Positions 1-53,864 of a stretch of DNA of 53,864 bases are shown piece by piece. The first letter of the stretch is position 1, and every line of letters begins with the position of its first letter. Position numbers and translations under genes: made by a program. The stretch spans positions 1 through 53,864 of the forward strand of contig JAGWWT010000006.1 in the NCBI GenBank assembly GCA_018970245.1, in the 5' to 3' direction. The stretch is from Patescibacteria group bacterium. GTDB taxonomy: Bacteria; Patescibacteriota; Minisyncoccia; Phycocordibacterales; PALSA-1337. The notes beneath the pieces are model-generated. The model was not told the origin of the DNA, did no database searches, and was given only the letters and a program-made list of their open reading frames with translations.

Positions 1-83
1 TGTTCGTTCCAATCCCAGGGGTCGGCGCAGGGTAAGCCCCGGCAATCAGCGTCGGAGCGGCGGTAAACGTCGCCGTGGGGGTG
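1..83. repeat. 83-bp terminal direct repeat, left copy (circular contig overlap)
   Basis: 1-83 is identical to 53782-53864, and a CDS reads in frame through the junction. Confidence 0.97.
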
Positions 84-1189
84 TACGTCGGCGTCAAGGA
101 TGGGCTGGCCGTGAAGGACGGACTGTTCGTCCATGTCGTGGAAATCGTCGGCGTCTGGGTAATGGTTGGCGTGATGATTTGTGCTAATTGAACCGTGGGG
201 AACGGCGACAAGGGCGTCGGTGGCGGCGTGGCCGTCGCCACCGTGGGAAACTGGATTGGCGTTGCCGTGGCGCACGACGGGCAATACTGATTCACGGGGG
301 TCGCCGTGGAGTTGGGACTGGCCGTGGAGGATTGCGTGAACGTGGGGCTGGCGCTGAAAGTTTGGCTCGGAGTGAATGTCGAAGTGAATGTATTCGGCGT
401 GAAGCACCCGCTGATGCAGTTCGAGTTCGTCGTCCACGTCCCCGTCTGCGCAGCGAAGACATTCGCGCTGGACGGTGTATTGGAGTAGACAGGGGTAGGA
501 GAGGCTGTCAGTGTTTGGGTGATCGTCGAGGTGGGCGTCCCCGTTGCCGCGGGGACCGCTGGGTCAAGGTAGATATTGGTGAACCATTCGGTTTGTGCGG
601 CAGCTTGGACACCAAAATATCCCGAAGTATAAGTTGAATCTGTTGAAGTGAAAATTAAAGCCCCATTAATGAAGCAATTGATCGAAGACCCAAGCTGATA
701 AATGCCGATCGTGGCTGGAATAGAATATGTAAGACCGGTAGCTTGATGGATAAGAGAGTTTTGGCTCTGCCCACCAAACCATCCACTATAAAGCGCCAAT
801 GAATTGCCGGATAACCGCAAAATATAACATCCTACCGAAGTGGACCCATCCAGTACCAGTGATTGGATATCCCAAACAATGGCACCTTCACCGTTGCCAT
901 AGACTTGAGTTGTTAATGAAAGTGAATTTGAAGAAAAAGTCGTATATGCGTAAATACCGGCCATAGCGCCACTATCTGAGCCTTGTAATGATTGTTGTGT
1001 GGTGACCGGCCATGATTGAATGGACCAGCTCACCGCCCCATTATTTTGGCCATAGAAAGACCAAAATGCAGGTTGACTGCCGGGGATGGGGTAAGCATTG
1101 AATGTCTGGGGACAAAATGGATTGACGCAAGCGCTCCGGCTTGATACCGGCACCAAAAGGACCAGGATCAAGAGCCAAAAAGTGCGCAT
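1..1189 (-). CDS. 5' part of a 518-aa signal-peptide, Thr/Pro-rich protein spanning the junction (continues 53781..53414); absent from the ORF track
   Basis: Hand translation from ATG 1189: MRTFWLLILVLLVPVSSRSACVNPFCPQ..., open to base 1, joins in frame to MPIIGSS... at 53773; beta-rich N-domain and long TPT/SPT tract. Confidence 0.88.
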   Translation of the reverse strand, partial: MRTFWLLILVLLVPVSSRSACVNPFCPQTFNAYPIPGSQPAFWSFYGQNNGAVSWSIQSWPVTTQQSLQGSDSGAMAGIYAYTTFSSNSLSLTTQVYGNGEGAIVWDIQSLVLDGSTSVGCYILRLSGNSLALYSGWFGGQSQNSLIHQATGLTYSIPATIGIYQLGSSINCFINGALIFTSTDSTYTSGYFGVQAAAQTEWFTNIYLDPAVPAATGTPTSTITQTLTASPTPVYSNTPSSANVFAAQTGTWTTNSNCISGCFTPNTFTSTFTPSQTFSASPTFTQSSTASPNSTATPVNQYCPSCATATPIQFPTVATATPPPTPLSPFPTVQLAQIITPTITQTPTISTTWTNSPSFTASPSLTPTYTPTATFTAAPTLIAGAYPAPTPGIGTN

Positions 1190-1193
1190 GGCC

Positions 1194-1658
1194 TCAGTTC
1201 GGCCAGTTGGTCGGCAGATAATACCAAATCGAAGTCGTCACCGCGGTCGGCGTCACTTCCCCAGCGGCGAACACGCTAGGTGACGACGGTGGGATGATGA
1301 ACCACACGTAACGGGCCACCTTGGTCATGGACCAATTGCCTGGTTTGACCATACCGACTTGTGAACCAGCCGTGTAGGTGTTGTTTATCGGCCCCGTCCA
1401 CACCTGGATCTGGGTTCCGCCTGTGCTTGTAATGTCGAAAGCGAAACACCCTACCAACCCCAGGTCGATGGCTGAGCTCGACGTGTTCGTCAGCGCGGAC
1501 GCAAGGGCGTAGGTCGCCGTCCCCGTGATTTGGTGGGGGCAACCTGACAGGTTGATGGAGGTGCTAGGATTGAAGTTGACCGGGCCGCTGTCGGCGAATG
1601 CGAAGGCGGGTAGCGCGGACAGGAGCAGTGTAGACAGGAATGCGCGGAACAGCTTCAT
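1194..1658 (-). CDS. signal-peptide protein, beta-rich (putative decoration protein)
   Basis: MKLFRAFLSTLLLSALPAFAFA|D; GGAGG RBS; late operon. Confidence 0.8.
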   Translation of the reverse strand: MKLFRAFLSTLLLSALPAFAFADSGPVNFNPSTSINLSGCPHQITGTATYALASALTNTSSSAIDLGLVGCFAFDITSTGGTQIQVWTGPINNTYTAGSQVGMVKPGNWSMTKVARYVWFIIPPSSPSVFAAGEVTPTAVTTSIWYYLPTNWPN

Positions 1659-2013: not shown

Positions 2014-2030
2014 CCCTCCCTCCCTTTCGG

Positions 2031-2402: not shown

Positions 2403-2403
2403 T

Positions 2404-2763: not shown

Positions 2764-2774
2764 GTCCTGACTCC

Positions 2775-3716
2775 TCAGAAGGTCTGCTCGGAAACCGCGC
2801 TGTTGACCACGAACCCACGCACACCATCACTGATGTCCGAGGCCGTGTAGGTGGCCTTCCAGCCCACGGTACCGACCTGCCCGAGGGGATTGGCCGCATT
2901 CACGTTGGTCGCCGGGCTGACGAACAGCGAGAACGGCATCGTCTCCAGGTCCACATTCAGGAGCGCGTCGGGGCCGCCGGCGACGGCCTGGTACACCGTG
3001 GTGCCGTTGGCGATCTGCGTGACCTGGATGTTGCTGGAACCGAGCACCCGGAAGCCGCTGAAGCGGGTCATTTCGCCGACCCACACCGCGTCCGAAGCCC
3101 CCGTGGGCCCCGAGCGCCGCGCGACGTCGAGGAAGCTGCCCACCTTGTCGTCGATGTCCAGGTCGTAGTATTGGTCAGGGTGGAGAATGAGGTTGTACAG
3201 GTCGTCCTCACCCGGCATCACATCCTTCGCCTGGAAAATCTTCCGGAGGCGGCGGATCTGCGTGGCGCTCATCACGTCGCCGGCGGTCATGGTGGCGGCC
3301 GTGGTGTTGTTGGCGAACAACTGGGTCCAATTCGCCAAGACCACCGCATAGGTCACGGTGTCCAGCGTGAGGGCCGCGTTGTACCCAAGCACCTTCGACG
3401 CCACATCCATCATGCTCGACCGGCCGGTGACTTCCAGTAGGTCGCTGATCTTGACGTAGGCGCCGTACTGCAGGAGGGTGGCGCTGTAGGTGTTGGTCGT
3501 GATGTTGATGTCCGCCGGCGCGGTGCCCTCGGTCAGCGCATTGGTCTGCGGCGCGAGGGGGACGGGACGCCAGGTGGAGAGGAGCTGACCGCTGTTCTTG
3601 TCGATCTGCTCCATGGTGCCGAGTTTGGCGATGTACAACTTCTTGCGGAGGAAAGACTGGCTCCGCTTCTTGTAGAACGTCATCGCCGCGGCGCTGACGT
3701 TTCCAGTGGTCATCAT
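2775..3716 (-). CDS. major capsid protein (HK97 fold, N4-gp56-like)
   Basis: LTEGTAP, QYGAYVKISD, ILHPDQYYDL, GEMTRFSGFRV, NPLGQVGTVGWK motifs; follows scaffold and portal. Confidence 0.9.
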   Translation of the reverse strand: MMTTGNVSAAAMTFYKKRSQSFLRKKLYIAKLGTMEQIDKNSGQLLSTWRPVPLAPQTNALTEGTAPADINITTNTYSATLLQYGAYVKISDLLEVTGRSSMMDVASKVLGYNAALTLDTVTYAVVLANWTQLFANNTTAATMTAGDVMSATQIRRLRKIFQAKDVMPGEDDLYNLILHPDQYYDLDIDDKVGSFLDVARRSGPTGASDAVWVGEMTRFSGFRVLGSSNIQVTQIANGTTVYQAVAGGPDALLNVDLETMPFSLFVSPATNVNAANPLGQVGTVGWKATYTASDISDGVRGFVVNSAVSEQTF

Positions 3717-3749
3717 GGCCGATACCTCATGAGGTTGTCGGCCGACGTG

Positions 3750-33411: not shown

Positions 33412-33746
33412 CTAAAACTTGGAAATCACTAGCTACACCCAAAGAACGTGAAGAATTAGAACATCCAGATTGGCCCAAAGGCCAACGCACTAAGCGCGTG
33501 GGGTGGAGGATGGTCAACGGGCACATACAAATCAAGGTGCCGGAATTTCTGGCTGCGGAGCGTGAACAACTTCTCAAATCGCGGCAAGCGAATTTGGAGC
33601 TGTACCACGAAGCCCTGGACCAACTTCATGCATTGCAGCACACGATGCTATGGGCGAAGAACCACCCATTCAAATTCCTGTGGTGTGTCATCACCAAGAA
33701 ACCCATCCCGACCCCGATTAAGCGGCAAAATCAATCGCATGCTTAA
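33408..33746 (+). CDS. hypothetical protein
   Basis: AAGGAG RBS; ATGA overlap. Confidence 0.65.
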   Translation: MTKTWKSLATPKEREELEHPDWPKGQRTKRVGWRMVNGHIQIKVPEFLAAEREQLLKSRQANLELYHEALDQLHALQHTMLWAKNHPFKFLWCVITKKPIPTPIKRQNQSHA

Positions 33747-37218: not shown

Positions 37219-37911
37219 TTACTTGCCCACCCAGAACGGTGTGCCGAAGGTGAACGAGGTCCCGACGACGAGCGCCGGGTAACGCTGCCCCGAGAACATC
37301 CGCCACGCCGGTCCCACAGTGAGCATGGTGTGGGTCGTCGGAAGGGTCACTCCGAGACCCAGCACCAGATCTCCGTACTGCTTGGAGTCCTGCGACTCGA
37401 TGGCACCCCCCACAGACAGGTTCGCCAGTGCGGAGAACGAGGCCGCATCGGTCCCGGAGCCCCACGCGAAATTCACCTCGTCCCCGGCCAGCGCCGATCC
37501 CGTCGACACCAACTGCCCGCCCGCTCCGATGTTCACCGGGGCGGAGCCGAACAACCCGGAATCCGACAGCGCCACTTCCGCCTTCGCACCCGCACCCAGG
37601 GCCAGCAGGCCCACGAACAGAAGCATGGCCGCCTGCTTAGCGGCGGTTAGGGCCTTCGCCGCGGCGAGGGTCTTATTGATGTCCGCGATCACCTCAGGCG
37701 TGGCGGGCTTGCCCACCTGCGCGGCGATGTCCTCGGCCGCCGGCATGATGGTCTCCACGTCCTTCTCCACGGCCGCGAGCTGGGCCTTATGCGCCTGCAC
37801 CCAGCCCCAGGCGATGTCGAGAGTGTGGAACACGCCGGCCAATCCGATCATTCCGGCGACGGTCTTGTAGAACGGGTTGGTGAGCGCCGCTCCAATGGCA
37901 TTCGGATCCAT
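37219..37911 (-). CDS. lysis-cassette membrane protein (TM, coiled coil, internal signal-like segment, beta-strand domain)
   Basis: Start MDPNAIG with GGAGG; architecture read from the translation. Confidence 0.7.
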   Translation of the reverse strand: MDPNAIGAALTNPFYKTVAGMIGLAGVFHTLDIAWGWVQAHKAQLAAVEKDVETIMPAAEDIAAQVGKPATPEVIADINKTLAAAKALTAAKQAAMLLFVGLLALGAGAKAEVALSDSGLFGSAPVNIGAGGQLVSTGSALAGDEVNFAWGSGTDAASFSALANLSVGGAIESQDSKQYGDLVLGLGVTLPTTHTMLTVGPAWRMFSGQRYPALVVGTSFTFGTPFWVGK

Positions 37912-37953
37912 ACGTCCTCCCATCCCGGGAACCGCCGGGTGCGGCCTTGAAAG

Positions 37954-38028
37954 TGGTTGCGGGGGCGGGATTCGAACCCGCAAACTCCGGATTATGAATC
38001 CGGCGCCTCACCGCTCGGCTTCCCCGCG
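37954..38028 (-). tRNA. tRNA-Met(CAT), initiator-like
   Basis: CGCGGGG/CCCCGCA acceptor with C1:A72 mismatch, CCGGA-TTCATAA-TCCGG anticodon arm, GGTTCGAATCC, encoded CCA. Confidence 0.92.
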
Positions 38029-38571
38029 TCACAAGCCTTTACGTAATCTGTTGATCCAACCGTGGAAAAACTCTTGGTCCGTCGCATGCGCATCGACGAC
38101 GGCGAGATAGACCAGCACGCGCTCCCAGTTGAAGGCCGAAACGAGCGCCGGAACCGGCGCGTGCGCGGCGGCCGCCAACGTGGATGGTCCCACGTCACCG
38201 TCCACCGGAACGGAGAACCCGCAGACGTTAAGCGCCCGCTGCAGGCAAAGCGCCGCTTCTTTCAATCCTTGATTCACTGCGCAACCGAAGTAGGTCATCT
38301 GCAGACCTTCCGGCAAGTAGTCAGCTTGGGATGGTGCCCAATACTTGTCGTGGTACCAAGTATTCGCGGCGTCCACCAATGCGGCAGACTTCAACCATTG
38401 GGTGGTGGGGATGTTGGCGGCTTTCAACTGCGCCACGATCACCCATCCAGGCCATGCCGCGTCGTCCTTTTGGTCCAGCCCAAGGACGGTCTCGCCCCCA
38501 GTGTCCCCGGGGTCATTCGATTCCACGCCTTCTGCCTGGTAAAGCGGGGCCACACAGTCCGCAAATCCCAT
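38029..38571 (-). CDS. endolysin, glycoside hydrolase family 108
   Basis: EG..SNDPGD.GGET, Y...YW, VNQG, LQRAL, VDG.VGP.TL, GWINR. Confidence 0.92.
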   Translation of the reverse strand: MGFADCVAPLYQAEGVESNDPGDTGGETVLGLDQKDDAAWPGWVIVAQLKAANIPTTQWLKSAALVDAANTWYHDKYWAPSQADYLPEGLQMTYFGCAVNQGLKEAALCLQRALNVCGFSVPVDGDVGPSTLAAAAHAPVPALVSAFNWERVLVYLAVVDAHATDQEFFHGWINRLRKGL

Positions 38572-38819
38572 CAGCGTTTCGCCAATTCAAGAAGCGCGAG
38601 CACGATCGTGAACACTCCACCAAATGCCCACATGGCACCCTTCCAAAAACCCACCATCTTCTCCATCTCACTGAATTTATTTTCAAGATCCTCGATAAGT
38701 TTTTGGCTGGCAGCTTCTTGGACCGCATGGACTTTATCCATGTGTTCCTGCATCATTTCATGGACCACGATCTTGAGCCGGTCGGTGATCCGACTCAGGT
38801 CATTTTCATCCAAGGCCAC
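38571..38819 (-). CDS. holin-like protein (coiled coil plus C-terminal TM)
   Basis: Directly upstream of the endolysin; C-terminal hydrophobic helix. Confidence 0.6.
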   Translation of the reverse strand: MALDENDLSRITDRLKIVVHEMMQEHMDKVHAVQEAASQKLIEDLENKFSEMEKMVGFWKGAMWAFGGVFTIVLALLELAKR

Positions 38820-38826
38820 GGCGCCC

Positions 38827-38979
38827 TCAATGGAAAATTCGGTGGTAGATGACCCAGAGCAGGAATGCTACCGAGCCGAAGAAATAGGCCGGGAGGACGT
38901 ATTCAGTGATGAAGATGAGTACGGTTTTGAGGAGCATAAACTCCTCGTCTTTCGGAATCTCGCTCGGCTTCGTGGTCAT
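38827..38979 (-). CDS. 50-aa membrane protein
   Basis: Start MTTKPSE with GGAGG; hydrophobic C-half. Confidence 0.55.
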   Translation of the reverse strand: MTTKPSEIPKDEEFMLLKTVLIFITEYVLPAYFFGSVAFLLWVIYHRIFH

Positions 38980-38980
38980 T

Positions 38981-39073
38981 TCAGTCGCCTCCGCAAGGGT
39001 GGATGTGGCAGCTGATGACACCGCCCAACAGTGCGGCGAACGCCACACAAACCAGGAAAAAGAGGAGGGGCAA
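38981..39073 (-). CDS. 30-aa hydrophobic peptide, possible lipoprotein
   Basis: GAGGGGAGGGG RBS, TTG start, MPLLFFLVCVAFAALLGGVISC. Confidence 0.4.
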   Translation of the reverse strand: MPLLFFLVCVAFAALLGGVISCHIHPCGGD

Positions 39074-39102: not shown

Positions 39103-39963
39103 TCACGGCTGGATGCCTGAATAGTAATCGTATTGCGCTTCGATCCCGTACAGGTTGACCACCCCGGATCCGCCCGAAGTCCGAACGATGTCCAGATTCA
39201 GGAAGTCACCCGGCTGGATGGTGTTGCCGATCTGCTGGTTCCACGGCGAAGCGCTCACCGCGGAATTGGTGGGAACCAACACGCGGGAGACGATCTGGGC
39301 CGGCGTATCCTGGAGCGAGGCCCCGATCCCGTAAGGCGCGGTCAGCACATTGGTGGCGGTGCCGATCATGTAGTACAGGCCACCGGGCCAAACGTAGCTG
39401 AATGTCCCGGCCGTCTGGGTCGTCTCGTTGAAATGCTGCCCCGCCACGGAGGCGGTCAGGGTGACGGAATCCCCGATGCTGGCGGCATTCATGACGGCGA
39501 AGAACTTGAGATCCCCCTTGAAGTTCCACGGAACGGTCCAGCCCAGCCGGATTTCGGCCGTTCCCGTGGTCAGCACCGCCACCGTCTGGCTCAGGGCCTG
39601 GGCGAGATAGGCGTTCGGGCCGCCAGGGTCGGCGGTCGTGGTCAGGATGGTCTTGCCGTCGCCGTTGGTCAGTTGGAGCGGGGTGAAATAGACCCTGGCG
39701 CGGTAGTTGTTCTTGAGCTGCTTGGGCGCCGGCGTAAACGTCGGGCTGGGGGTCAACGTTCCGGTCGGCGTCTGGGTAGGGGTGTACGTGGGGAATGCGG
39801 TCTGGACGTAGGTCGCGGTCGCTGCGACCGCCGTCTGGGTGGACTGCACGTTGACGATGGCCTGGGTCAACGTGGCATTGGGCGTGGGAGTAGCGGTAGC
39901 CGCCCAGCCCAGGCGTGGGCCGGCCAGCAGCGCCAGCAGTGAGAGCATGAGCAGCTTCTTCAT
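39103..39963 (-). CDS. signal-peptide, Thr/Pro-rich protein at the tailspike position
   Basis: MKKLLMLSLLALLAGPRLGWA|ATATPTP; GGAGG RBS; beta-rich C-domain. Confidence 0.82.
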   Translation of the reverse strand: MKKLLMLSLLALLAGPRLGWAATATPTPNATLTQAIVNVQSTQTAVAATATYVQTAFPTYTPTQTPTGTLTPSPTFTPAPKQLKNNYRARVYFTPLQLTNGDGKTILTTTADPGGPNAYLAQALSQTVAVLTTGTAEIRLGWTVPWNFKGDLKFFAVMNAASIGDSVTLTASVAGQHFNETTQTAGTFSYVWPGGLYYMIGTATNVLTAPYGIGASLQDTPAQIVSRVLVPTNSAVSASPWNQQIGNTIQPGDFLNLDIVRTSGGSGVVNLYGIEAQYDYYSGIQP

Positions 39964-43979: not shown

Positions 43980-44468
43980 TCAAGCTGCAGCTGCAGCAGC
44001 CAAAGCCCCAAGCGCCGCGGCGCCACCCATAATCCCGGACCCTCCGTTACCCTGTTGGTTAGTGCTACCACTCATTCCATTCATCATCATCAAACGCAAG
44101 AAGTCTTGGTTGTAGTTGTTCATCGACTGGTTGCTGTAATTCTGCAGGTTGGCTTGGTTGAGCGCGTTCATCGTCGCGCTTTGCTCACCGAATTGCTGCT
44201 GCTGTAACTTAGCAAGCGCTCCGGATTCGGCGCCGGCCGTTTGTCCCGCGATGTTGCCTAATGCGTTGCTGGCCTCGCTGCCACCCAATACACCAGCACG
44301 GGCCAACGCCGCCATCGCGCTGTTGTTGGCCTGTCCTTGCGCTTGGCCACCCTGGTTGTAGACATTCTGGATTTCAGCATTCATCCCCGGCGTTGCCACC
44401 TGGGACGGGTCCGTGTAAAGATTGGGAAGGTTCGGTGAACTGTATCCGCCGGTTCCAGCCATGGTCAT
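43980..44468 (-). CDS. small DNA ejection protein (gp7-like)
   Basis: Gly/Ala/Gln/Asn-rich with hydrophobic GGAAALGALAAAAAA end. Confidence 0.7.
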   Translation of the reverse strand: MTMAGTGGYSSPNLPNLYTDPSQVATPGMNAEIQNVYNQGGQAQGQANNSAMAALARAGVLGGSEASNALGNIAGQTAGAESGALAKLQQQQFGEQSATMNALNQANLQNYSNQSMNNYNQDFLRLMMMNGMSGSTNQQGNGGSGIMGGAAALGALAAAAAA

Positions 44469-44848
44469 CTCCTCCAACGCGGGATGTCAACGGGAGCCAC
44501 ATAAAGAATGTTCCCATTGTCCACGCCTAGTTTGATCGCCTTCGTGTACTTAGCTATCGCGACGACGGATTTATTGTTCTCATTCGTCGTGAATCCGACA
44601 CCTTCCAGACCACATTGCTTCGCCCATTGGGCCAAGGCCCGGATACATTCCCAGGTCTTTTTAGGGTCGGGCGCCCAAAGCCCCGTCACCCATATGACCT
44701 TTGTACCGTGGACCGGCAGCAAGCTAAACAACAAGTTAGTCCCGCCAAAAAACTCCTCCCCCTCCAGAAAACGATCTGCCAAGGTGGGGGCGACGGCGCG
44801 GATACGCTCCTCGAACACGTGTTTATCGAGTTTACGGCATTCGGTCAT
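44465..44848 (-). CDS. GNAT-like virion assembly protein (putative)
   Basis: Typical position before ejection genes; WAKQCG...GFTT. Confidence 0.5.
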   Translation of the reverse strand: MTECRKLDKHVFEERIRAVAPTLADRFLEGEEFFGGTNLLFSLLPVHGTKVIWVTGLWAPDPKKTWECIRALAQWAKQCGLEGVGFTTNENNKSVVAIAKYTKAIKLGVDNGNILYVAPVDIPRWRR

Positions 44849-45297
44849 GCTTGTACATTCTCCGGTAACTCATAAATCGTAGTAGCCGAGGTGCCGCCGG
44901 CAGGATTCACAGTGACAGTCCCGGATGACGCCAAGAATTTAAGTGTGAATGTGTGGCTCCCTGGACTCAGTACAGAACTGTAAACGATCGCCGATCCGGG
45001 AGCCACGGAAACCACGACCGCTCCATCAATTAACAGTTGAATGAAACCTGTTCCCGTCGCACTAAGGCATGACGAAAACACCACAAGGCCACCTTTACAA
45101 TTGACAGTCCAACTGTAAGGTCCGATCTGTGTCGCCGCACCAGATGTCGTTTGATATTGTGTCGAATCCGGCGCCGGCGCTTGATCCACGACGCAAAGTG
45201 GTGACGTCGCGTTAGTATTGACCGTATTTTGCAATGATTGCAAAGCCGCTTGCATGTTAGGGTCGGATGTGGAAATGGGAAAGTTGGACTGGTTCAT
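44845..45297 (-). CDS. tail-associated protein
   Basis: Short coiled coil plus beta domain, following the nozzle gene. Confidence 0.6.
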   Translation of the reverse strand: MNQSNFPISTSDPNMQAALQSLQNTVNTNATSPLCVVDQAPAPDSTQYQTTSGAATQIGPYSWTVNCKGGLVVFSSCLSATGTGFIQLLIDGAVVVSVAPGSAIVYSSVLSPGSHTFTLKFLASSGTVTVNPAGGTSATTIYELPENVQA

Positions 45298-47753
45298 AGT
45301 CTCGGCCCCAACACTTTGACATGGATCTTCATGAATCGAATGGCCACCGGTACATTGGGCTGATTATTCATCAGCACGATTTTGAAGTACTTACAATTTT
45401 TTAATTCAAGATCCTGCGCAGCCCCAGCACCTGGATTATTATGTCCGATAGGAAACCCGTCTTTAGTCATATCGAAAGTGAATGTGCGCACGGCTTTTGG
45501 TTGAAAATCAAGATACACTGCCACATTTAATGTTGGCGTAGTACCATTGATCTCTCCTTGTTTGGTCCCTCCCACACTAAGCCATTTTAATTGCTTATAA
45601 GATGCTGGATCACCAGCATGAAGCCATGGCGTTTCGTAGTAAAAATCAATTGGAATAGTCTCATCTGCCCCCGTGACATCCAACTGCCACACATTCCCTT
45701 GCCCATCCCCAGCGTATATTTGGGCTGGTGCTAATGTTAGGTCTTCAGTTAATGCGGTATAACATTGTGCAGGCTGCGCCGTAGGTCCCGGTGTATCGTG
45801 CCAGAATGTCGCCCGGATCCAATCAAAAACCAAGATGTCATCCCCAGGATTTGCTCTAGCGCACTGGAAATGCATTTGACCTTTTGTCGGGTTGATGAAA
45901 GCTTGTGCTGATCCCATCGCCGCGAAATCATATGCATTCGGTCCGGTCAACCTGGCACGTATAGATGTGTTTTGTGGAAGCAGATTGACGGTATACGCAT
46001 TAACACCCGCGATACCGGAGGCGGACAGAAAATAGATGATTCCGTTATCCGATTCTTCGATGACAAATGGTGAAATAGGACCATACCGACCATTACAAGT
46101 GTTGACTTGAAAGGGTGAGACTGAAGTGTTGCCAGTGAAATTCACAGCATAAAGACTATTGGTCTTGCCGACGTACAAGTAACCATTCCTACCCACGTAA
46201 AGTGATGTGATGACCTGCCCATCAAACACTTCAGGTACATCGATAATGGTCCCATCAAGACCACCTTGGGTTCCCCACACTTGGGGCGCACCTAATGGAC
46301 TGATGTAAATCCTGCTTGGATTAAGAGGGTCCCCGGCCATCACTAGAAATCCGAGCCACGCCACGCCGAATTGGCAACATGGTGCATCGATTTGGCCGGT
46401 AAGATAACCCGGCGCGTCGATACCCAAGGCACCTGTGGTTTGCTGCCAAGTGTTCGGATCCGGAGCGGTGAAAAAACTTACACTATTGATGCTGTTCGGC
46501 GCCGGATTATATCCGGGATACGCCGTCGCCCCATCCGCACTATCAATGTTCGTCGCTACACCTTGACTGGCTGGGACCTGGTAAAAAATTTGGTTGGGAC
46601 CACTGCCGACCTGTGTAGCTGGGGTCTGTGGGTTAAAAGGAGGGGTTAAGAACCATTGTGTCGCGGATGCGACCAGATCATTCCCAAAAATGGCCCCATC
46701 GCCGCCCTTAAAAGGTAGTTGTTGGATTTGAATACTGGATTGCCCACCTGTCGGGACATCTACTGAAAAAATACTTGTCCTTTGTCCACCACTACGGAGT
46801 GTAGTCACCGCCATTACGAGCATAGTCGTAGCATTTCCAGTGATATTAATCGAACCACCAATATTACTCGATGAAACTGCGGCAGCATTCCATGATACTC
46901 TGGTATAAGCCTGGGTGGAGTATTGCAACGGTGAAGCCAATACCATGGAAAGGATGTAATAATTAGCGGTTCCGGCGGTTCCTGATGTTGTGAATGCATT
47001 GACAACGGCAGTCTCCATGTATGTTCCGTTATCAATCCACACAGTCATTCCAATATAAACACCGGAAGCGGCTTGGTTCTGCGTGAAAACAATAGTAGGC
47101 CCGGCCCCACCCACGCCGACGTTTATTCCTTGGATTTGTATTGAAAAATAAGTCCCCTTACCAAGTTTCTGCAGATAGTAGGGAGAAACCCTGTTACCTA
47201 ATAGACCCACCTGTGCAGAGGACCCATCCCACCACACCGGTGGTACTGGTGCATAATTGGTGTTATTACCGGCGAATACGATCAATTGATTTTGGACACT
47301 AGTAAAAAAAGCATAAGTGGCATTTTGCCAATTCAAAAGAGCTAGATTGAAATTCCAAGCCCCATTCGTGTAAACTGCTAGCACAGAATTGCACACAGCC
47401 ACGAGCAACCGGTTCAAAACACCGGATGCTTGTGAGTAGACATATTTGAATAGACCGAGCACAGGTGCGGCGCCGAGATTCGCCCCGATTTGTGTTCGAC
47501 CATTCCTTTTATTGAGGTATCCGTTCCAAAAATCCACATCATGCATTTCCGGACTAGCGAATGGAGCGGCGGCAGCCACGGAGAACGATGCGGCCGGCGC
47601 GCCGGATGTAGCCAAAAGTTGTTCATCTGGTTGGGTAGGATTCCATCCTCGAGCCCCAAAATCAGCCACAAGGATATCACCTTCCGGAAACTTGGCGTCC
47701 GGTAACATATTGAGGTATTGCTGTTCACCGAAAACACCCCCAGGCACTCCCAT
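45294..47753 (-). CDS. tail nozzle/stabilisation protein (P22 gp10 or T7 gp12 analogue)
   Basis: Beta-propeller-like repeats, LNKRNG, SRIYIS; follows the adaptor; start MGVPGG with GGAGG. Confidence 0.72.
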   Translation of the reverse strand: MGVPGGVFGEQQYLNMLPDAKFPEGDILVADFGARGWNPTQPDEQLLATSGAPAASFSVAAAAPFASPEMHDVDFWNGYLNKRNGRTQIGANLGAAPVLGLFKYVYSQASGVLNRLLVAVCNSVLAVYTNGAWNFNLALLNWQNATYAFFTSVQNQLIVFAGNNTNYAPVPPVWWDGSSAQVGLLGNRVSPYYLQKLGKGTYFSIQIQGINVGVGGAGPTIVFTQNQAASGVYIGMTVWIDNGTYMETAVVNAFTTSGTAGTANYYILSMVLASPLQYSTQAYTRVSWNAAAVSSSNIGGSINITGNATTMLVMAVTTLRSGGQRTSIFSVDVPTGGQSSIQIQQLPFKGGDGAIFGNDLVASATQWFLTPPFNPQTPATQVGSGPNQIFYQVPASQGVATNIDSADGATAYPGYNPAPNSINSVSFFTAPDPNTWQQTTGALGIDAPGYLTGQIDAPCCQFGVAWLGFLVMAGDPLNPSRIYISPLGAPQVWGTQGGLDGTIIDVPEVFDGQVITSLYVGRNGYLYVGKTNSLYAVNFTGNTSVSPFQVNTCNGRYGPISPFVIEESDNGIIYFLSASGIAGVNAYTVNLLPQNTSIRARLTGPNAYDFAAMGSAQAFINPTKGQMHFQCARANPGDDILVFDWIRATFWHDTPGPTAQPAQCYTALTEDLTLAPAQIYAGDGQGNVWQLDVTGADETIPIDFYYETPWLHAGDPASYKQLKWLSVGGTKQGEINGTTPTLNVAVYLDFQPKAVRTFTFDMTKDGFPIGHNNPGAGAAQDLELKNCKYFKIVLMNNQPNVPVAIRFMKIHVKVLGPRL

Positions 47754-47754
47754 C

Positions 47755-48537
47755 TCAGCCTCCGTAGCTGAAAAGCACCCGGTTAATATCGAGGGCTGAG
47801 GTGAAAGCCCATTCATTCCGGTTGTTCCGCAAATTCGCAAGTGCCTCGGCGAATTTTTGGTTCCTCACCCACATTTCACTGTAACGACGTGATGGGAGGG
47901 TGGGTGCACCGAAAGCATCATCCCACATTTTGTATTGTGGGTCGCCTAAGTAACGGAAAGCATTGCAGATCGCCCGGCTAATGACAAGATCCTGGAACTC
48001 AGGTGGGCAATTCGGAATATCCGTCGGGTTAACGAGCACCAGAGGTCGCTTCAAGTATGGTACATGGACACTATATGCGCCGGTCCCATTCGATGGTGCA
48101 TCCGCGGCAGGGAAAAGATACACCTGGAGATTGTTGTTGCCGGAATAGGCCGCCGGAATATACGTCCACGGTTTCGTGGGGCCATAATTGGTATATTGGC
48201 CTGGGTAATTGGTGATCCACTGGTAGTATTCCGTCGCCCAAAGACGTTGCTGATAGGCCGGAATGGTCATATCTAGAATTTCAGCACAGTCATCTGGCAT
48301 TGTGTACGGTGTCTGCTGCCCGACCACAGTGTTAAAATTATAGCCGTCATAAAACCGCCACCGCCAATCCTTTTCGGTCGCGATCTGGGAGTAAGCGTCG
48401 TTGATGATCTGCTGTAGACGTGTCAAACCAGGGGAATCCTGCCCATCTTGGAGCGTGTTGGGATAGGTGATCCGTTTGACGATTTCAGAAATCTCCTGTT
48501 GCATTTGCAGGAAAGTTTTCTGGTTCGGGAGTGCCAT
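47755..48537 (-). CDS. head-tail adaptor (tail tubular protein A-like)
   Basis: TFLQMQ, IINDAY..I...WRW, Y.MP.D, LFPAAD, P.EFQDLV. Confidence 0.78.
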   Translation of the reverse strand: MALPNQKTFLQMQQEISEIVKRITYPNTLQDGQDSPGLTRLQQIINDAYSQIATEKDWRWRFYDGYNFNTVVGQQTPYTMPDDCAEILDMTIPAYQQRLWATEYYQWITNYPGQYTNYGPTKPWTYIPAAYSGNNNLQVYLFPAADAPSNGTGAYSVHVPYLKRPLVLVNPTDIPNCPPEFQDLVISRAICNAFRYLGDPQYKMWDDAFGAPTLPSRRYSEMWVRNQKFAEALANLRNNRNEWAFTSALDINRVLFSYGG

Positions 48538-50399
48538 TAGGGGGTCACCGAGGGAGTGGCCGTTGGGCTGATCGTCGCCGTCGGAGAGACCGTCCACGAT
48601 GGACTAATCGTTGGGGTCAACGTGAAAGTCATCGTTCCGGTCATAGTGGGTACCGGCGCGCATTGGTTATTCGTGATAGGTGGTAATTCCAACTGAACGC
48701 TCACGGCCGCCGGTCCATTAGTGGTGGCCTGATAAGTGTTCGCAGTGAATGTCACCGCATTACCACCTATGATGTTTCCAAACACAGAATCCGTCGATGC
48801 CCAGGTCCCATAACCATGCCAATAGCCAAGATTACCGAATCCTGGAGGCCAATTCAACAGTGATTTGGCTCCACTATACACCGACAGCACCGTTCCATTG
48901 ACATATTGCACATTCAATGTAGACGACAAAAATGCGGAGGATACAGTAGAAGCGGTCACAGTCAAGTTGTAGCCTGGAGCGTACTCCGTCCCATCAAATT
49001 GTAGAAACTGTGCCGCGACTACATTGACTGTATCGTAAGTAGGCGAAATCACGGTGATGTAAGGTGCTTCCAATGGTGTTTCCAAATAATTAGTCCAGAT
49101 TTCGAGACCTTCATGCCATTGGTTGGATGGAATCTGCAACGTGGGGTACCAAACCCCAGCCGCTGTCCACATGACATCATCAATCACTGATTGATTGTCA
49201 GTATTGTTTGTAGCCAACACAAGAACATTCGTGCAATTGAAGCAATGATTAGTCTGCGCAGTAAACTGCAACTCCGGAAGGTTAGTCGCAGTCAAAGTTT
49301 CATCTTGCACCATGTAAGGATAGCACGCCGCAGGTGGCGTATATGTTGGTGTAGGAGTTGCGGTCTGTGCTGCAGTGGGTGTAGGAGAGAACGGAGAATT
49401 GATTGTAATACTTCCATCACCAGACAACCATTCATAGATATTTGCACCAGATGCAGTGGATGTCACATAATTTCCTGTGGCGTTAAACCATCCTAGAGAT
49501 GACGAGTAAGACAAAAACACAACGCCAGAACCACCATGACCAGCATCTAATCCATTACGATCTGAATAATAGTTATAGCACCCACCACCACCACCACCAC
49601 CACGGTTATTGAATCCCCATCCAGCAGCGCATGGATTGCATCCGCACCCTGTTTTGGTGGAGTTATACGCACCATTTCCACCGCCCCCTATGCCCCCAGG
49701 AAGCGTCCCAAAACAATTCACAGCGATAGTGTTTCCTGCACCACCACCACCACCGTAATAAACAGTGGCACCACTGATATTAGAAGCGAAACCAAGACCT
49801 CCATTACCCGCATTGGTCCCACCGCCACCGTTCGCGCCACCACCACCACCACCCTCAACACTTTGAGGAACGGCTTCAAATCCATTACCTCCAGGGTTAG
49901 ATGACCCTGGGGTAGGCAATGGTGATGGACAAGTGCCGCCACCATTAGACGAAGAATAGCATGATGCTGGACAATGATACGCAGCGAAACCACCCCCACC
50001 ATTTCCTCCACATCCACCCCCCACACCATCTGTCGCACCGGCACCGCCACCATAAGCCTGATACACATCGAAAAATGAATTTTGCCCTTGTGTATTATGA
50101 ATGACACTTGCCCCAACATGCACAAGGTATGTATTTCCATTCAATAAATAGGGGTGCACATCAAGCACTTGCCCACCACCTCCACCGCCACCGGCCATAG
50201 TCCAATCTTGACCAGCTACACCCGCGCCTCCGCCTCCGCCTCCGCCCACGACAAGCACATGATATTGTGAAGTGGGTGTCAGTGTAGGGGTTTGAGTGAC
50301 ACTGTAAGTCGGGCTTACTGTAAAAGTCGGAGTATCCGTCGGCGTATTCGCCGCGGCGAACCCAGGAAGAAATGCAAAGATCAACCAAATGATTTTCAT
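48537..50399 (-). CDS. signal-peptide, Gly-rich-domain, Thr/Pro-rich protein
   Basis: MKIIWLIFAFLPGFAAA|; VLVVGGGGGGG...GGSGVV Gly-rich domain of the type seen in phage fibres; three TPT tracts; Cys-rich. Confidence 0.85.
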   Translation of the reverse strand: MKIIWLIFAFLPGFAAANTPTDTPTFTVSPTYSVTQTPTLTPTSQYHVLVVGGGGGGGAGVAGQDWTMAGGGGGGGQVLDVHPYLLNGNTYLVHVGASVIHNTQGQNSFFDVYQAYGGGAGATDGVGGGCGGNGGGGFAAYHCPASCYSSSNGGGTCPSPLPTPGSSNPGGNGFEAVPQSVEGGGGGGANGGGGTNAGNGGLGFASNISGATVYYGGGGGAGNTIAVNCFGTLPGGIGGGGNGAYNSTKTGCGCNPCAAGWGFNNRGGGGGGGCYNYYSDRNGLDAGHGGSGVVFLSYSSSLGWFNATGNYVTSTASGANIYEWLSGDGSITINSPFSPTPTAAQTATPTPTYTPPAACYPYMVQDETLTATNLPELQFTAQTNHCFNCTNVLVLATNNTDNQSVIDDVMWTAAGVWYPTLQIPSNQWHEGLEIWTNYLETPLEAPYITVISPTYDTVNVVAAQFLQFDGTEYAPGYNLTVTASTVSSAFLSSTLNVQYVNGTVLSVYSGAKSLLNWPPGFGNLGYWHGYGTWASTDSVFGNIIGGNAVTFTANTYQATTNGPAAVSVQLELPPITNNQCAPVPTMTGTMTFTLTPTISPSWTVSPTATISPTATPSVTP

Positions 50400-53050
50400 G
50401 GCCACGGCCAGTAGAGGAGGTTAGCGCCAACATTGGGCGTAGGGGTCGGCGTCAATCCGCAATCGAACAACTGCGCCATCGTGCCGGGATAGACACCCAC
50501 CCAGCAAACGCCTTCGTTAGGGTTAGCCGAATCGTTGTAGCTGTCCATGAACAGGTAGGTGTTCCCGTCGTCGGATTTCTCTCCAGGCACAAACGCTGGG
50601 TCTCCGATCTGGTTCGGCGTGACGTAGGCCGGGCTGTCCGACGGCTGGAAGGTATAAGCGTCGTCAGGAACCCAGTTCACTAGGTCGTAGGAGTACGCCT
50701 TCTTAACGTAGCTCGGGGTCGATCCGTAATGGAAGAAGGTCTCCCACCGCTGGCCGTCTTTGAATAGCGTTCGCGTGCCGCCATAGAAACCAGAACCTCC
50801 GTTGCTCAAAAAGTACGGGAGGTTAGCATACGGAGGATTGACCGGGTTGGCGGTCGTCAGGTTGTCCGTGGAGATGAACAACCAAATCGTATCCGTTGGG
50901 AACGGCCCAAAGAATGATCCATTGCCCAAGTCGGCCAAGATATACCAAGTGCTTGTCCCCGGTACATTGTAGAACGCCGCCTGCTGGATGTATTCCGAAT
51001 ATCCAGCATAGAGGCTCACGTTGACCAGGGATGCGGCGGTCACTAAAACCGTTTGACTGATGTAATGGTAGCCGTCATCCGCCGCCGAGGAAGTCCAGTA
51101 GCAATAATTGTTGGTCGTCGAATCCCTGGCGAATAGACGCCAGGAACCGTCCGGCATCTTCACCTCGGTTCCCGCATCCACGCCAGTGGACAGGCCCCCA
51201 GCGCCTCCGCCAATCAAGATCCCATGCCGCGTCACGGCCCCGGTCTTGAACGCCGCGAGGCTTGTCGCCGTAGCAAGACAATCCGTCTCGTAGGTCGGTG
51301 ACCCGCTGGGCAATCCCGCTGTGTAGATCATGTGCCAGAGCCCGTCCGCGTGCTTGGCCGGATAAACGAACGGCATCTGGACCACGCCGAGGTTTGACCC
51401 TCCTCCCGCCGTCTCGTAGGTCATTGTGGCGACCAAGACGGGCGTTTTAGCGGGAGTAACCACAGCCACGCTCGCACACGTCGCCACCGGCGTGAACAGA
51501 GGCGTCGGCGTAGGGTTGACCGTCAGGTATGGCGTGACCGAAGGCACGGGTGTAACACCGCAACCGTCAGTCGTCGCCACACCATTCACATCCTGTCCGG
51601 TCAGCACCCGGATCTGGCAGATGTACCCGGCCACCGGGTTGGAACCGAAGTAGCTCCCAATACTAGCCTTGGAAATAGTGTTCGTCGTGAAATTCACTCC
51701 GTAGCTTGCGCTGATCGTCCCATTGATAATCAAGTAGACGATCCTATTATTGAAAATCCATTTGATGTTGTTCCAAGCATTCAAATTCAGGGCGCCAAAT
51801 GAAGAACTCGGTTGTTGTACCCCAGTGCCGAAAAACACCATCTGGAGCGGGTAAGGGGAATTAAGCTGTATCCCAAAATCTCCGATAGGCTGCTGGAACA
51901 CGGCATTGATGGCACTCAGCGGAGTGGTGTCCGTCATGGCGAAAATCTTTTGGTTTCCGCTCAAAGCGGTGGGATAGTATTCCAGTTCGATTCCGAATGA
52001 CGCGGCATCAGAGATCGCCGCGCATTCCGCCGCGCTGAATTTAACGTAATCCGAGGCATCCCAACCTGACACGCAATAGGTTCCGCCATTTGGGGGAGCA
52101 GGGGAGGTCACGAAGGACAGCCCAGAACCAACCACGGTCATAGGGCCGTTCGGCCCGGCGCTGTTCCAGGAGTTTCCTCCTCCCGGAACAATGTTGGCGA
52201 CGTAGACATCCAGGCTGTTTGGGTTAATGCAAGGCGTGTTCGTGAACGTCGGGGTGATCGTAAACGTAGGCGTGATTGTTGCCGTAGGAGTATTCGTATA
52301 CGTCGATGTAGGCGGAGGACCCGCCTCAATCTCGGCGACAACCTGGATTCCGACTTGGAACCCAGTCCCGGTATAATTGCTGGTGACACTGTACGATCCA
52401 GTCGATGTAGTCGTTTCATTTCCGCCAGCCGCCGCGATGGAATCCGTAGCCTGGTTGATATTCCAGGTGTTATTCACTAAATTAGTGTCCAATGTGATCG
52501 TCGCGCCAGAGGTAGAGGACATACCTCCATTGGACTCAAGCCAAGAATTAGACACAAGCGTAGTCAATGAAGTGGTCTGATTGCCCCCGGAACCAAAAGG
52601 CGTGTTATTCGTGGCTCCAATCGGAGATGATTGATTTACGCCTCCAAGTTCTTTCACTGCACATTGTCCGCTCGACAATATGATCGTGCCGCTATTCTCA
52701 AAAGAGACCACGACATTCCCCGTTGTGCTGGATGCCGGGTTAAGGAGATACCATACAGAAGCGTCCCCATTCGTCGTTCCAGCTCCGGCGTTTCGATCAA
52801 CCGCCAAAGTAAGCGACGAACCGTTCCAAGTCACCCCGGTAACATTGTCATCATGTGTCCCGCTTCCTACGGCGGCCGCCCAAACATCGACGATAATGGC
52901 CGTCTCCGAACCTGTCCCAGTGGTAAAACTTTGTGTCAGCGTACCGCCAGCAACCCCAATCCCCTGAAAAGTCACAGGAGCCACGATGGTTGAAATGGCC
53001 GCGAAGGCGCTGGAAGAAATCGCCAGAAGAACGAACAGCAGTTTCTTCAT
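50396..53050 (-). CDS. signal-peptide multidomain protein (LamG/ConA-like plus glycoside-hydrolase-like beta-propeller)
   Basis: MKKLLFVLLAISSSAFA|; LNAWNNI..LIING..IGS..GYICQIRV; WHMIYTA, AYSYDLVNW, IGDPAF; TPT linkers. Confidence 0.82.
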   Translation of the reverse strand: MKKLLFVLLAISSSAFAAISTIVAPVTFQGIGVAGGTLTQSFTTGTGSETAIIVDVWAAAVGSGTHDDNVTGVTWNGSSLTLAVDRNAGAGTTNGDASVWYLLNPASSTTGNVVVSFENSGTIILSSGQCAVKELGGVNQSSPIGATNNTPFGSGGNQTTSLTTLVSNSWLESNGGMSSTSGATITLDTNLVNNTWNINQATDSIAAAGGNETTTSTGSYSVTSNYTGTGFQVGIQVVAEIEAGPPPTSTYTNTPTATITPTFTITPTFTNTPCINPNSLDVYVANIVPGGGNSWNSAGPNGPMTVVGSGLSFVTSPAPPNGGTYCVSGWDASDYVKFSAAECAAISDAASFGIELEYYPTALSGNQKIFAMTDTTPLSAINAVFQQPIGDFGIQLNSPYPLQMVFFGTGVQQPSSSFGALNLNAWNNIKWIFNNRIVYLIINGTISASYGVNFTTNTISKASIGSYFGSNPVAGYICQIRVLTGQDVNGVATTDGCGVTPVPSVTPYLTVNPTPTPLFTPVATCASVAVVTPAKTPVLVATMTYETAGGGSNLGVVQMPFVYPAKHADGLWHMIYTAGLPSGSPTYETDCLATATSLAAFKTGAVTRHGILIGGGAGGLSTGVDAGTEVKMPDGSWRLFARDSTTNNYCYWTSSAADDGYHYISQTVLVTAASLVNVSLYAGYSEYIQQAAFYNVPGTSTWYILADLGNGSFFGPFPTDTIWLFISTDNLTTANPVNPPYANLPYFLSNGGSGFYGGTRTLFKDGQRWETFFHYGSTPSYVKKAYSYDLVNWVPDDAYTFQPSDSPAYVTPNQIGDPAFVPGEKSDDGNTYLFMDSYNDSANPNEGVCWVGVYPGTMAQLFDCGLTPTPTPNVGANLLYWPWP

Positions 53051-53406
53051 CGCGCCGCCGGAGTGGGGGTGGCGGTCGCCGTAGGTAATGGCGTCGGTGA
53101 GGCGGTTGGTGAAGGCTTGATTTTACGATCCAAGCGTCGATATTCCCTGGACAGCACTTCAAGCGCGACCGAAGTCGCCTTAGCCTTGGTGTCGAAGTGG
53201 GCATTCACCCGCAGGCGTTGGCCGTTGTTCCAAATGATGAATCCCCATTTGGAATTCTGGAGTTTGAACACCTCAGCGTCCAGCACTCCGGCAGAGGAAG
53301 TAGTGGACGCCACGGTATTCGAGGCATTTGGCATGGGCAATCCCGAGGCCGACCCAACCGCGTGCAGTCCTGTCGAAGTCAGCAAAAACACCAAGAGTAG
53401 TTTCAT
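53047..53406 (-). CDS. small signal-peptide protein with TPTP tail
   Basis: MKLLLVFLLTSTGLHA|; C-terminal PSPTASPTPLPTATATPTP. Confidence 0.78.
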   Translation of the reverse strand: MKLLLVFLLTSTGLHAVGSASGLPMPNASNTVASTTSSAGVLDAEVFKLQNSKWGFIIWNNGQRLRVNAHFDTKAKATSVALEVLSREYRRLDRKIKPSPTASPTPLPTATATPTPAAR

Positions 53407-53413
53407 AGTAACC

Positions 53414-53864
53414 TCAGTTGTCAGTCAGCGTCACGATGACGCCTGTAGGAATATGGTCTATTCCTGTGTTCAAGACATACGGTGGACTGTAGTCCGTTAC
53501 CGAAGCCACGATCCCGTTGTTGAACGTCACTCCGTTGGGCCACCTTCCCACCGGAGCGCCGGACTGGTATCCCGCCGCCGCCGTGATCTGGTTCATGCAC
53601 AAGGTTTCCAGGCAGTTCGCCGGAGAGATAAATCCGGTAGCCACCGTATTGTAGAGCTTGACTTCGATCCCGTACACCAGGGACGGATTGAAGATGTCCA
53701 CGGAATAGATGTGCCCCGGGGACGACTTGACCAACGAAGTCACCGTAGCCGCCGAAGAACCGATGATCGGCATGAGGAACGTGTTCGTTCCAATCCCAGG
53801 GGTCGGCGCAGGGTAAGCCCCGGCAATCAGCGTCGGAGCGGCGGTAAACGTCGCCGTGGGGGTG
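53414..53864 (-). CDS. 3' part of the junction-spanning 518-aa protein
   Basis: In frame with 1189..1; C-domain VKSSPGHIYSVDIFN...GVTFNNGI. Confidence 0.88.
   Translation of the reverse strand, partial: TPTATFTAAPTLIAGAYPAPTPGIGTNTFLMPIIGSSAATVTSLVKSSPGHIYSVDIFNPSLVYGIEVKLYNTVATGFISPANCLETLCMNQITAAAGYQSGAPVGRWPNGVTFNNGIVASVTDYSPPYVLNTGIDHIPTGVIVTLTDN
53782..53864. repeat. 83-bp terminal direct repeat, right copy
   Basis: Identical to 1-83. Confidence 0.97.

Follow-up and report, generated by a model that had tools for sequence, protein, structure and literature searches.

What would a tailed phage gain from placing signal peptides on proteins encoded among its virion genes? The accepted view is that tailed phages put their particles together wholly in the cytoplasm, and the phage proteins known to be exported are lysis or exclusion factors. 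The question is raised by contig JAGWWT010000006.1 of the Patescibacteria group bacterium assembly GCA_018970245.1, whose 53,864 nucleotides, analysed in full, are referred to here as the window. The contig is circular with a length of 53,781 bp, its first 83 bases being repeated at the window end, and it represents the complete genome of a short-tailed, podovirus-like phage with an SU10-type head-to-tail adaptor. Six of its late genes encode proteins with a signal peptide-like N-terminus, five of them in a run between the head genes and the adaptor gene and the sixth, g286, ahead of the lysis cassette (Table 1). Our analyses make it highly probable that all six proteins are exported, and their modelled domains lead us to predict that together they constitute a phage kit for binding and cutting the glycans of the host surface.

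An earlier reading of the window, made from its letters alone (the original prediction), had placed these six open reading frames (ORFs) on the minus strand, with the second crossing the contig junction. The ORFs and the 83-bp overlap confirmed that arrangement, g518 being a protein of 518 residues encoded across the circular junction (1189..1 joined to 53781..53414). The prediction that signal peptides would be found on these six only among the structural proteins was also borne out, as all six were flagged compared with 0 of 13 other late proteins (the large terminase subunit TerL, portal, scaffold, major capsid protein [MCP], adaptor, nozzle-like protein and seven others). The test used was a home-made heuristic of n-, h- and c-regions rather than SignalP, requiring a positive n-region, an uninterrupted h-region of 8–16 residues and small residues at -3/-1, all within the first 35 residues, and it cannot separate a cleaved signal from a signal anchor. 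Each of the six proteins has a single hydrophobic segment, which is N-terminal (that of g119 is shorter than the 19-residue window used). None has a canonical lipobox at the signal end, g286 and g119 being devoid of Cys and the other four lacking the motif, and no paralogy among the six was detected by BLASTP.

The possibility that these N-termini are artefacts of wrong start codons, chimeric assembly or chance hydrophobicity was considered, as the g884 and g622 genes have no Shine-Dalgarno sequence and the contig was binned with an unrelated genome. However, the genes are packed stop-on-start, with overlapping or abutting codons that leave no room for other starts, and four of them have a Shine-Dalgarno sequence or TGAGG upstream. 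In addition, independent assemblies show these N-termini conserved, the two ends of the contig join into a circle, and its gene order recurs in a relative. The heuristic flagged 175 of 1255 ORFs across the whole bin, and at that base rate the simulated probability of a run of at least five flagged genes among 60 was 0.0026. An artefactual origin is therefore very improbable and has already been largely refuted. Dual isoforms produced from internal starts were ruled out, as no Shine-Dalgarno-backed start was found just behind the signal in any of the six genes.

Table 1. Positions in the window of the six signal-peptide genes and of the late genes that border them.
Feature	Coordinates	Strand	Description
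g154	1194..1658	-	154 aa; signal peptide, beta-rich body; first of the run
g518, N-terminal 396 aa	1..1189	-	Signal peptide, jelly-roll-like domain (lead only), Thr/Pro tracts, close Cys pairs
g518, C-terminal part	53414..53864	-	Shares 83 bp (27 aa) with the N-terminal piece
g119	53047..53406	-	119 aa; signal peptide, small charged domain, Thr/Pro tail; stop overlaps g884 start
g884	50396..53050	-	884 aa; signal peptide and beta sandwich, LamG-type domain, GH43-like propeller (predicted)
g622	48537..50405	-	622 aa, or 620 aa from ATG at 50399; stop overlaps adaptor start
g286	39103..39963	-	286 aa; between ejection-protein genes and lysis cassette
Major capsid protein	2775..3716	-	phrog_1357, 3.6e-32; upstream border of the run; no signal peptide
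SU10-type head-to-tail adaptor	47755..48537	-	PF24175, 48.5 bits vs cut-off 27; no signal peptide
Nozzle-like large tail protein	45294..47753	-	Named from its position after the adaptor; no signal peptide
Lysis cassette	38029..39048	-	73-aa and 82-aa proteins (one transmembrane segment each), GH108 and PG_binding_3 endolysin

The composition of the six proteins provides a second line of evidence. Tracts rich in Thr and Pro are present in five of them, as had been claimed, the exception being g154, and under a stricter definition of such tracts 33 of 1298 bin ORFs were flagged, four of which are from the window (the junction-split g518 was not counted). The claim that several of the proteins are rich in Cys holds for the three large ones, which have 10, 11 and 13 Cys compared with 2, 0 and 0 in the small ones, but it does not set the group apart since the nozzle-like protein and TerL have nine each. 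Charged residues make up only 4–9% of five of the six. Taken at the level of sequence, this architecture is like that of secreted carbohydrate-active enzymes (CAZymes), with what appear to be Cys-closed lectin or glycosidase modules set on Thr/Pro linkers. For g518 there are only feature matches in a protein atlas to 3-keto-disaccharide-hydrolase/LamG-like clusters (0.90–0.93), which we treat as a lead, and g154 and g119 had no family match in Pfam or PHROGs. In g154, g884 and several g884 homologues the final domain or Thr/Pro tract is succeeded by a short C-terminal tail rich in aromatic residues and Pro (1194-1220 and 50396-50420 on the minus strand; L124 7007-7030), and such tails may be docking peptides.

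In g884 the signal is followed by a beta sandwich of the minor-tail type (residues 20–245, hereafter the N-domain). A LamG-type domain and a GH43-like five-bladed propeller come next, each preceded by a linker (Thr/Pro in the case of the first), and the protein closes with a Thr/Pro stretch and then a short aromatic tail. The AlphaFold model of the N-domain, based on 44 sequences, has pLDDT values above 90 throughout residues 20–245. Foldseek searches of BFVD with that model retrieved proteins of uncultured phages (target TM up to 0.74) as well as several minor tail proteins of mycobacteriophages (E 3.5e-10 to 1.9e-4, target TM mostly 0.47–0.67), and as modelled the N-domain shares its fold with proteins named minor tail protein. 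The middle part of g884 is poorly modelled, and its assignment comes from alignment with homologues that carry Laminin_G_3, the Pfam matches being in the homologues only. The last 320 residues resemble the propellers of families GH43, GH62 and GH68 (Foldseek against PDB, E 6e-8, target TM 0.52–0.58) in a model of moderate quality (pLDDT ~50–90). No Pfam match to g884 was obtained at E <= 0.1, so it has no family match to GH43, GH62 or GH68. Four Cys residues are invariant in g884 and four full-length homologues (5/5, all with signal-like N-termini) that are only 23–25% identical, and these lie at both ends of the LamG-type domain and both ends of the propeller, from which we infer two domain-closing disulfides.

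Homologs of g884 show how the signal is joined to the rest of the protein. A HMMER scan of 1.84 billion representative sequences with g884 gave 96 matches, 43 of which were flagged as having a signal and 32 of which begin directly with the domain, and Thr/Pro tracts were found in 12 of the 43 flagged matches compared with three of the 53 unflagged ones. (A word-index search with g884 returned one weak match only.) Alignment of 37 members of the N-domain family, defined by the first 245 residues of g884, revealed two forms. In 12 members a hydrophobic extension ends in small residues just before a conserved Ala-Ile-Ala-like start, whereas the other 25 have their initiating Met exactly where the extension ends in the signal-bearing ones. 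Minor tail protein profiles matched a number of the 37, phrog_553 matching 14 and phrog_2106 matching eight.

These two forms bear on a reading in which the N-termini are uncleaved membrane tethers, or pro-peptides, that hold the proteins until lysis, or are bypassed late so that the proteins take a cytoplasmic route into the virion. Synthesis in the cytoplasm is evidently feasible, as 25 of the 37 N-domain members and the g622 relative P0098 have no signal, and our heuristic is blind to the distinction between a signal anchor and a cleaved signal. However, the extensions have small residues at -3/-1 directly at the domain border, aligned with the first residues of the signal-less homologues; the invariant Cys pairs bracket domains in proteins that all have signals; and the low charge described above is typical of extracytoplasmic proteins. 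We therefore regard a tether or pro-peptide as improbable.

In g622, which adjoins the adaptor gene, the signal leads into a Thr/Pro stretch and a Gly_rich_2 domain, and a linker joins the latter to a conserved C-terminal domain, behind which the protein ends in a Thr/Pro tail. The Gly_rich_2 domain (PF21722) occupies residues 46–300 (39.1 bits vs a cut-off of 24.3, 1.1e-9), and g622 also matches phrog_2295 at 5e-25. Its structurally nearest atlas clusters are all Gly_rich_2, with four of the five rows being 100% viral and the fifth having no recorded taxa. The C-terminal domain, which is bracketed by Cys361 and Cys582, recurs in three other proteins, namely P0098 (41% identity over g622 residues 330–622), a protein encoded by the metagenome contig L040 (40%) and one of the IMG/VR contig G401 (31%). 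P0098 and L040 both retain the two Cys, whereas BLASTP aligns G401 with a shift of one position at the first Cys and a gap at the second. The g622-type gene lies directly against the adaptor gene in all three genomes where context is available (the window, L040 and G401). A complex prediction with two copies of the adaptor and the C-terminal part of g622, made with small alignments of our own, scored 0.01 against a mark of 0.32, an outcome that we take as evidence neither for binding nor against it.

The sixth protein, g286, has a signal peptide, a Thr/Pro-rich mature N-terminus (residues 22–85) and a jelly roll like those of carbohydrate-binding modules (CBMs). The model of the jelly roll has pLDDT values of 85–95 for most of residues 88–283, and Foldseek searches of PDB with the body of the protein gave weak matches to CBMs (E 3e-4 to 1e-2, target TM 0.46–0.64), the comparison being with folds of the CBM6, 15, 27, 35 and 36 types. 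We identified 24 homologues, 40–63% identical to g286, on contigs of up to 52 kb, and the signal is kept in all 25 family members. Mean pairwise identity within the family reaches 76% in the 64 residues of the mature N-terminus, compared with 49% in the body and 47% in the signal. The Thr/Pro stretch thus lies within the best-conserved part of the protein, and for that reason it appears to be more than a spacer. A conserved end joined to a variable binding domain suggests a fibre-like design, to judge by the alignment, and the position of the gene after those of the ejection proteins is where P22-like phages place their tailspike gene.

A check proposed along with the original prediction was whether related phages keep both the gene order and the signals, and this was found to be the case. 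G401, a 35-kb contig, is related to the window in its MCP (78% identity), adaptor (66%), nozzle-like protein (43%), endolysin (37%) and scaffold (33%). Between its head genes and its adaptor gene there are three genes, all of whose products have signals: a g154 homologue (48% identical) with a matching aromatic/Pro C-terminus; a 342-residue protein of the N-domain family (profile E 9.6e-29) with a long Thr/Pro tract; and a 997-residue protein that combines Gly_rich_2, an alpha-galactosidase (GH27) domain pair and the g622-type C-terminal domain. The tail of the g154 homologue is identical to that of g154 except for the last residue. In total, four of 20 G401 late proteins were flagged, these being the three just described and the homologue of g286, compared with 0 of the 16 others. 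Judged from these sequences, the slots and signals appear to be kept between relatives while the modules are exchanged, with a GH43-like module in the window and GH27 in G401.

Two other contigs extend the comparison. The 3.7-kb contig L040 encodes a g622-type C-terminal domain (the N-terminus is cut off by the contig end), then an adaptor that is 60% identical to that of the window, then a nozzle-like protein. The IMG/VR contig L002 is from an unrelated phage that also has an SU10-type adaptor (36.3 bits), neither its portal nor its adaptor having BLASTP similarity to those of the window, and it has one signal-peptide gene after its MCP gene and two directly after its adaptor gene, the first of which overlaps the adaptor stop. 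One of these three genes encodes P0007, which has 39–40% BLASTP identity to the N-domain of g884. P0007 and the 342-residue G401 protein come from phages with unrelated portals and have the same first 18 residues, which form the signal, whereas their domains are only 34% identical (L124 5975-7003; L002 10001-10195), which suggests recombination at the signal-coding 5' end. IMG/VR scans with P0007 and with the g286 family found one locus each, whereas no relative emerged from scans with P0004, P0006, the portal, the adaptor alignment or the alignment of g622 with P0098. Cultured phages were no more informative, as tblastn searches of 50,697 records with the portal, the g884 N-domain and g622 found nothing, and sequence searches of PDB with the nozzle-like protein, the adaptor, g622 and a profile of the g884 N-domain gave no matches.

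Together, these results provide good support for export of the six proteins. This is because the signals are conserved while their own sequences drift, because the signals end exactly at domain borders, and because the mature proteins look extracytoplasmic in their low charge, their Thr/Pro linkers and their Cys-bracketed modules. The phage proteins scanned included none for export or maturation, and therefore the Sec system, signal peptidase and oxidoreductases of the host would have to act on them. The argument that disulfides form in the periplasm would depend on the host, whose monoderm or diderm envelope decides where exported proteins wait. Glycosylation of the linkers had also been proposed as a possibility, and there was no glycosyltransferase among the phage proteins scanned.

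The original prediction went further than export, which our results uphold, in proposing that the exported proteins join the virion at lysis. We consider such attachment quite possible without holding it to be probable, since the evidence for it is indirect and comes from synteny, adaptor coupling and domain kinship. In the course of events that we envisage, the six proteins would be made late, alongside the virion proteins, and exported as pre-proteins by the host Sec system and signal peptidase, after which they would fold outside the cytoplasm, probably with disulfides. Holin lesions and lysis would then mix the compartments, so that the exported proteins would meet fibre-less particles and could dock on them through conserved end segments. 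For g286 the candidate segment is the mature N-terminus, and for the g622 family it is the C-terminal domain together with the tail. Late attachment is chemically possible, because fibre-less particles of P22 can be completed by tailspike added outside cells. Attachment is also favoured by the fixed places that the genes hold in the morphogenesis operon across deep divergence, by coupling to the adaptor gene in two phage lineages, by the fibre-like design suggested for g286, by the exchange of modules between relatives, and by the kinship of two domain types, the g884 N-domain and Gly_rich_2, with proteins of phage particles. The absence of a signal-less tail fibre that had been reported was not contradicted, as no fibre or spike family was matched in Pfam or PHROGs by the six proteins or by the other late proteins.

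The fullest form of this idea is that a lineage of tailed phages builds its receptor-binding and depolymerase appendages outside the cytoplasm, using Sec pre-proteins that fold oxidatively, wait in the envelope and attach late. The signal would then be a constant 5' cassette for glycan-binding modules that are swapped, and possibly captured from host secretomes, and it would replace the conserved N-terminal anchor that such proteins usually have. We put this forward tentatively, as a number of observations weigh against it. We know of no tailed phage that exports parts of its virion, and full-text literature searches, which covered main articles, turned up no tailed phage described as exporting a tail fibre or virion protein through Sec. 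The modules are stapled end to end on long flexible linkers, giving the look of monomeric secreted enzymes rather than trimeric fibres, and the models show compact single-chain modules. Mature g622 begins with a linker and has no recognisable virion-binding domain, and P0098 shares its linkers and Cys pair yet has no signal peptide as called, so that the architecture does not appear to require export. The N-domain of g884 itself matched none of the PHROG families at E <= 0.001, and only one of ten signal-bearing homologues of that domain matches a minor-tail PHROG (phrog_553). Furthermore, the SU10-adaptor phages or prophages of eight other Patescibacteria genomes have no run of signal genes, most of the other late proteins of the window are unannotated so that a conventional fibre or receptor binder could still be among them, and attachment after export would have only seconds around lysis in which to occur.

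Several of these observations speak for exported proteins that never join the virion, an outcome that, like the cell-surface remodelling offered as an alternative in the original prediction, we judge about as likely as attachment. The six would then serve the infected cell as lectins and glycosidases, either free or bound to its envelope. They might strip or mask surface glycans, letting progeny escape debris, capsule, sheath or biofilm, or else exclude other phages. They would represent an enlarged, late-operon version of proteins of the Llp, Cor, Lom/Bor and gp45 type and of soluble phage depolymerases. This accords with the exported proteins known from tailed phages all being non-virion, examples being Sec-exported endolysins and gp45 of phage NBJ. 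It also accords with the architecture of secreted CAZymes, which includes the Thr/Pro linkers, the Cys-bracketed modules, the GH43-like propeller, the GH27 domain of G401 and the CBM-like g286; with the scarcity of tail PHROG matches among signal-bearing homologues; with no particle-binding domain having been detected; with the same architecture occurring without a signal in P0098; and with Patescibacteria genomes also having the N-domain within very long open frames, which range from 858 to 6481 aa. In contrast, accessory genes usually come and go, whereas those of the g154, g622 and g286 types keep their operon places in relatives whose scaffold and endolysin are only 33–37% identical. A purely cellular role is also harder to reconcile with the translational coupling to the adaptor gene, with the ~14% of the phage genome that the six genes together occupy, and with no other recognisable fibre being present. 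Lysogenic conversion in particular is unlikely, because no integrase was found among the ~40 phage proteins scanned.

Comparison with known systems highlights what is unusual in the window. Late phage proteins with an N-terminal signal for the host Sec system are themselves not new. Endolysins of the type of Lys44 from Oenococcus phage fOg44 are made late and exported by host Sec through such a signal before lysis (PMC8878798). The window proteins are like these and like signal-arrest-release (SAR) endolysins in that respect. However, those are lysis enzymes, one per phage, and are not part of the particle, whereas in the window the endolysin has no signal (as judged by inspecting its sequence, to which the heuristic was not applied) and six glycan-directed proteins of the morphogenesis block have one.

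A second group of exported phage proteins comprises Llp of T5, Cor, and Lom/Bor of lambda, which are exclusion or receptor-masking proteins. To this may be added gp45 of mycobacteriophage NBJ, described as an exported defence protein whose signal peptide is needed for function (10.64898/2025.12.12.693979). As in the window, these are phage genes, often near tail genes, with signal-dependent products that act at the cell surface, and gp45 resembles g622 and g286 in having a disordered stretch after the cleavage site and then a globular domain. In contrast, they are single small genes, often for lipoproteins or outer-membrane proteins and often expressed from prophages, whereas the window proteins reach 884 residues, have enzyme-like domains and no lipobox, and include five encoded in a row at a conserved position.

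The P22-type tailspike, with a conserved N-terminal particle-binding part, a variable receptor part and the ability to be added to particles in vitro, is the closest parallel for g286, which likewise follows the ejection-protein genes and has a mature N-terminus better conserved than its glycan-binding domain. The two differ in that the P22 protein has a trimeric beta helix, whereas in g286 a Thr/Pro stalk and a small CBM-like jelly roll follow a signal peptide. Secreted CAZymes such as Cellulomonas cellulases have a signal, disulfides, and catalytic and binding modules connected by Pro/Thr linkers, on which O-glycosylation is frequent. The window proteins share with them the signal peptide, globular modules, linkers and predicted disulfides, and depart from them in being encoded in a phage morphogenesis operon, in including one module with a phage-tail fold and in including another that is viral in four of five atlas rows. 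Escherichia phage SU10 (Kuravirus) provides the parallel for gene order, as it has an adaptor of the PF24175 family and the series TerL, portal, scaffold, MCP and accessory gene(s), followed by a 250-residue hypothetical protein at the position expected for the adaptor (putative). No sequence similarity to SU10 beyond the Pfam adaptor match was found. Unlike in the window, the SU10 slot after the MCP gene encodes one protein with an Ig-like domain, and the fibres are annotated further downstream.

Exported phage proteins are thus known, and what is new is to find five to six large pre-proteins, modular and directed at glycans, encoded as a conserved block in the virion gene block. This points either to a last step of virion assembly that takes place outside the cytoplasm, or to a class of secreted phage enzymes that ready the cell surface for release, each of which would be novel. 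If the assembly step is true, disulfide-dependent modules of secreted enzymes would be usable as host-range determinants. Either outcome would change the annotation of fibre-less metagenomic phages and searches for receptor-binding proteins.

The assembly in which the contig was deposited appears to be a poor guide to the host. The phage is contig C74 of a 101-contig bin of 1.42 Mb (contig GC 0.48–0.65), in which an RpoB fragment reaches 94% identity to metagenome-assembled genomes that carry the label Candidatus Taylorbacteria or Paceibacteria. Its order relatives, at 600–700 kb, are about half as large as the bin. Comparison of the phage contig with the other 100 contigs of the bin revealed neither a spacer-like match nor a protein match, and a search of 400 other genomes of the phylum did not find the g286 family. 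Patescibacteria were therefore dropped as the host; the link looks spurious, and the bin probably contains foreign contigs, the phage included. A scan of genome contigs with the adaptor alignment also found nothing. Four other bin contigs, C21, C65, C84 and C89 (36–65 kb), have terminal overlaps of 109, 114, 119 and 28 bp, respectively, and may be further circular elements; 19 queries found no protein common to them and the phage at E <= 1e-3.

Genes for SU10-type adaptors do occur in the phylum, in 11 of the 400 genomes (G199:C1, ~720 kb; G190:C2, ~110 kb; G295:C2, ~161 kb; and others) compared with 0 of 14 control genomes. Some of these lie in large or single-contig genomes next to portal and capsid genes and are likely to belong to prophages of Patescibacteria. 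We considered whether signals are a general habit of the SU10-adaptor phages of Patescibacteria, and this was rejected since no flagged run was found beside the adaptor in nine stretches from eight of the 11 genomes.

On the minus strand of the phage genome the late genes run in the order TerL, portal, scaffold, MCP, small proteins and the signal-peptide genes, then the adaptor, the 848-residue nozzle-like protein, small proteins, and proteins of 464 and 802 residues, which are followed by g286, two small membrane proteins and the endolysin. No lipobox spanin was seen in the lysis cassette, and this absence would fit, weakly, with a host that lacks an outer membrane. The plus strand encodes replication and nucleotide metabolism functions, including a primase-helicase type protein, a family A DNA polymerase, a C5 methylase, a thymidylate-synthase family protein and a dCMP deaminase. 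The C5 cytosine methylase, a MazG-like pyrophosphohydrolase domain, the thymidylate-synthase family protein and the dCMP deaminase are clustered (28937-30307 and 33562-36185, plus strand) and may constitute a DNA base-modification module.

Several additional features of the minus strand were observed. A gene for a GroES-like co-chaperonin (Cpn10, 2.7e-18) at 7281-7778 separates the portal gene from the terminase gene, with some overlap with the longest TerL ORF. A tRNA-Met gene (37954-38028) directly follows the endolysin gene, and after it is a 254-residue ORF (37219-37983) with a second, internal signal-like segment and then a beta-rich part, which may be two genes, the second encoding a seventh exported protein. 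The 150-residue protein encoded after the nozzle-like gene (44845-45297) has a long hydrophobic stretch (residues 72–111) and very low charge, features that might suit a needle or an ejection protein that inserts into membranes. The codon composition of the genome is a strong mosaic, with third-position GC of 0.90 in the capsid gene compared with 0.42–0.45 in g622 and the nozzle-like gene, and GC content drops from ~0.63 (2001-4000) to ~0.50 over the tail genes (44001-50000).

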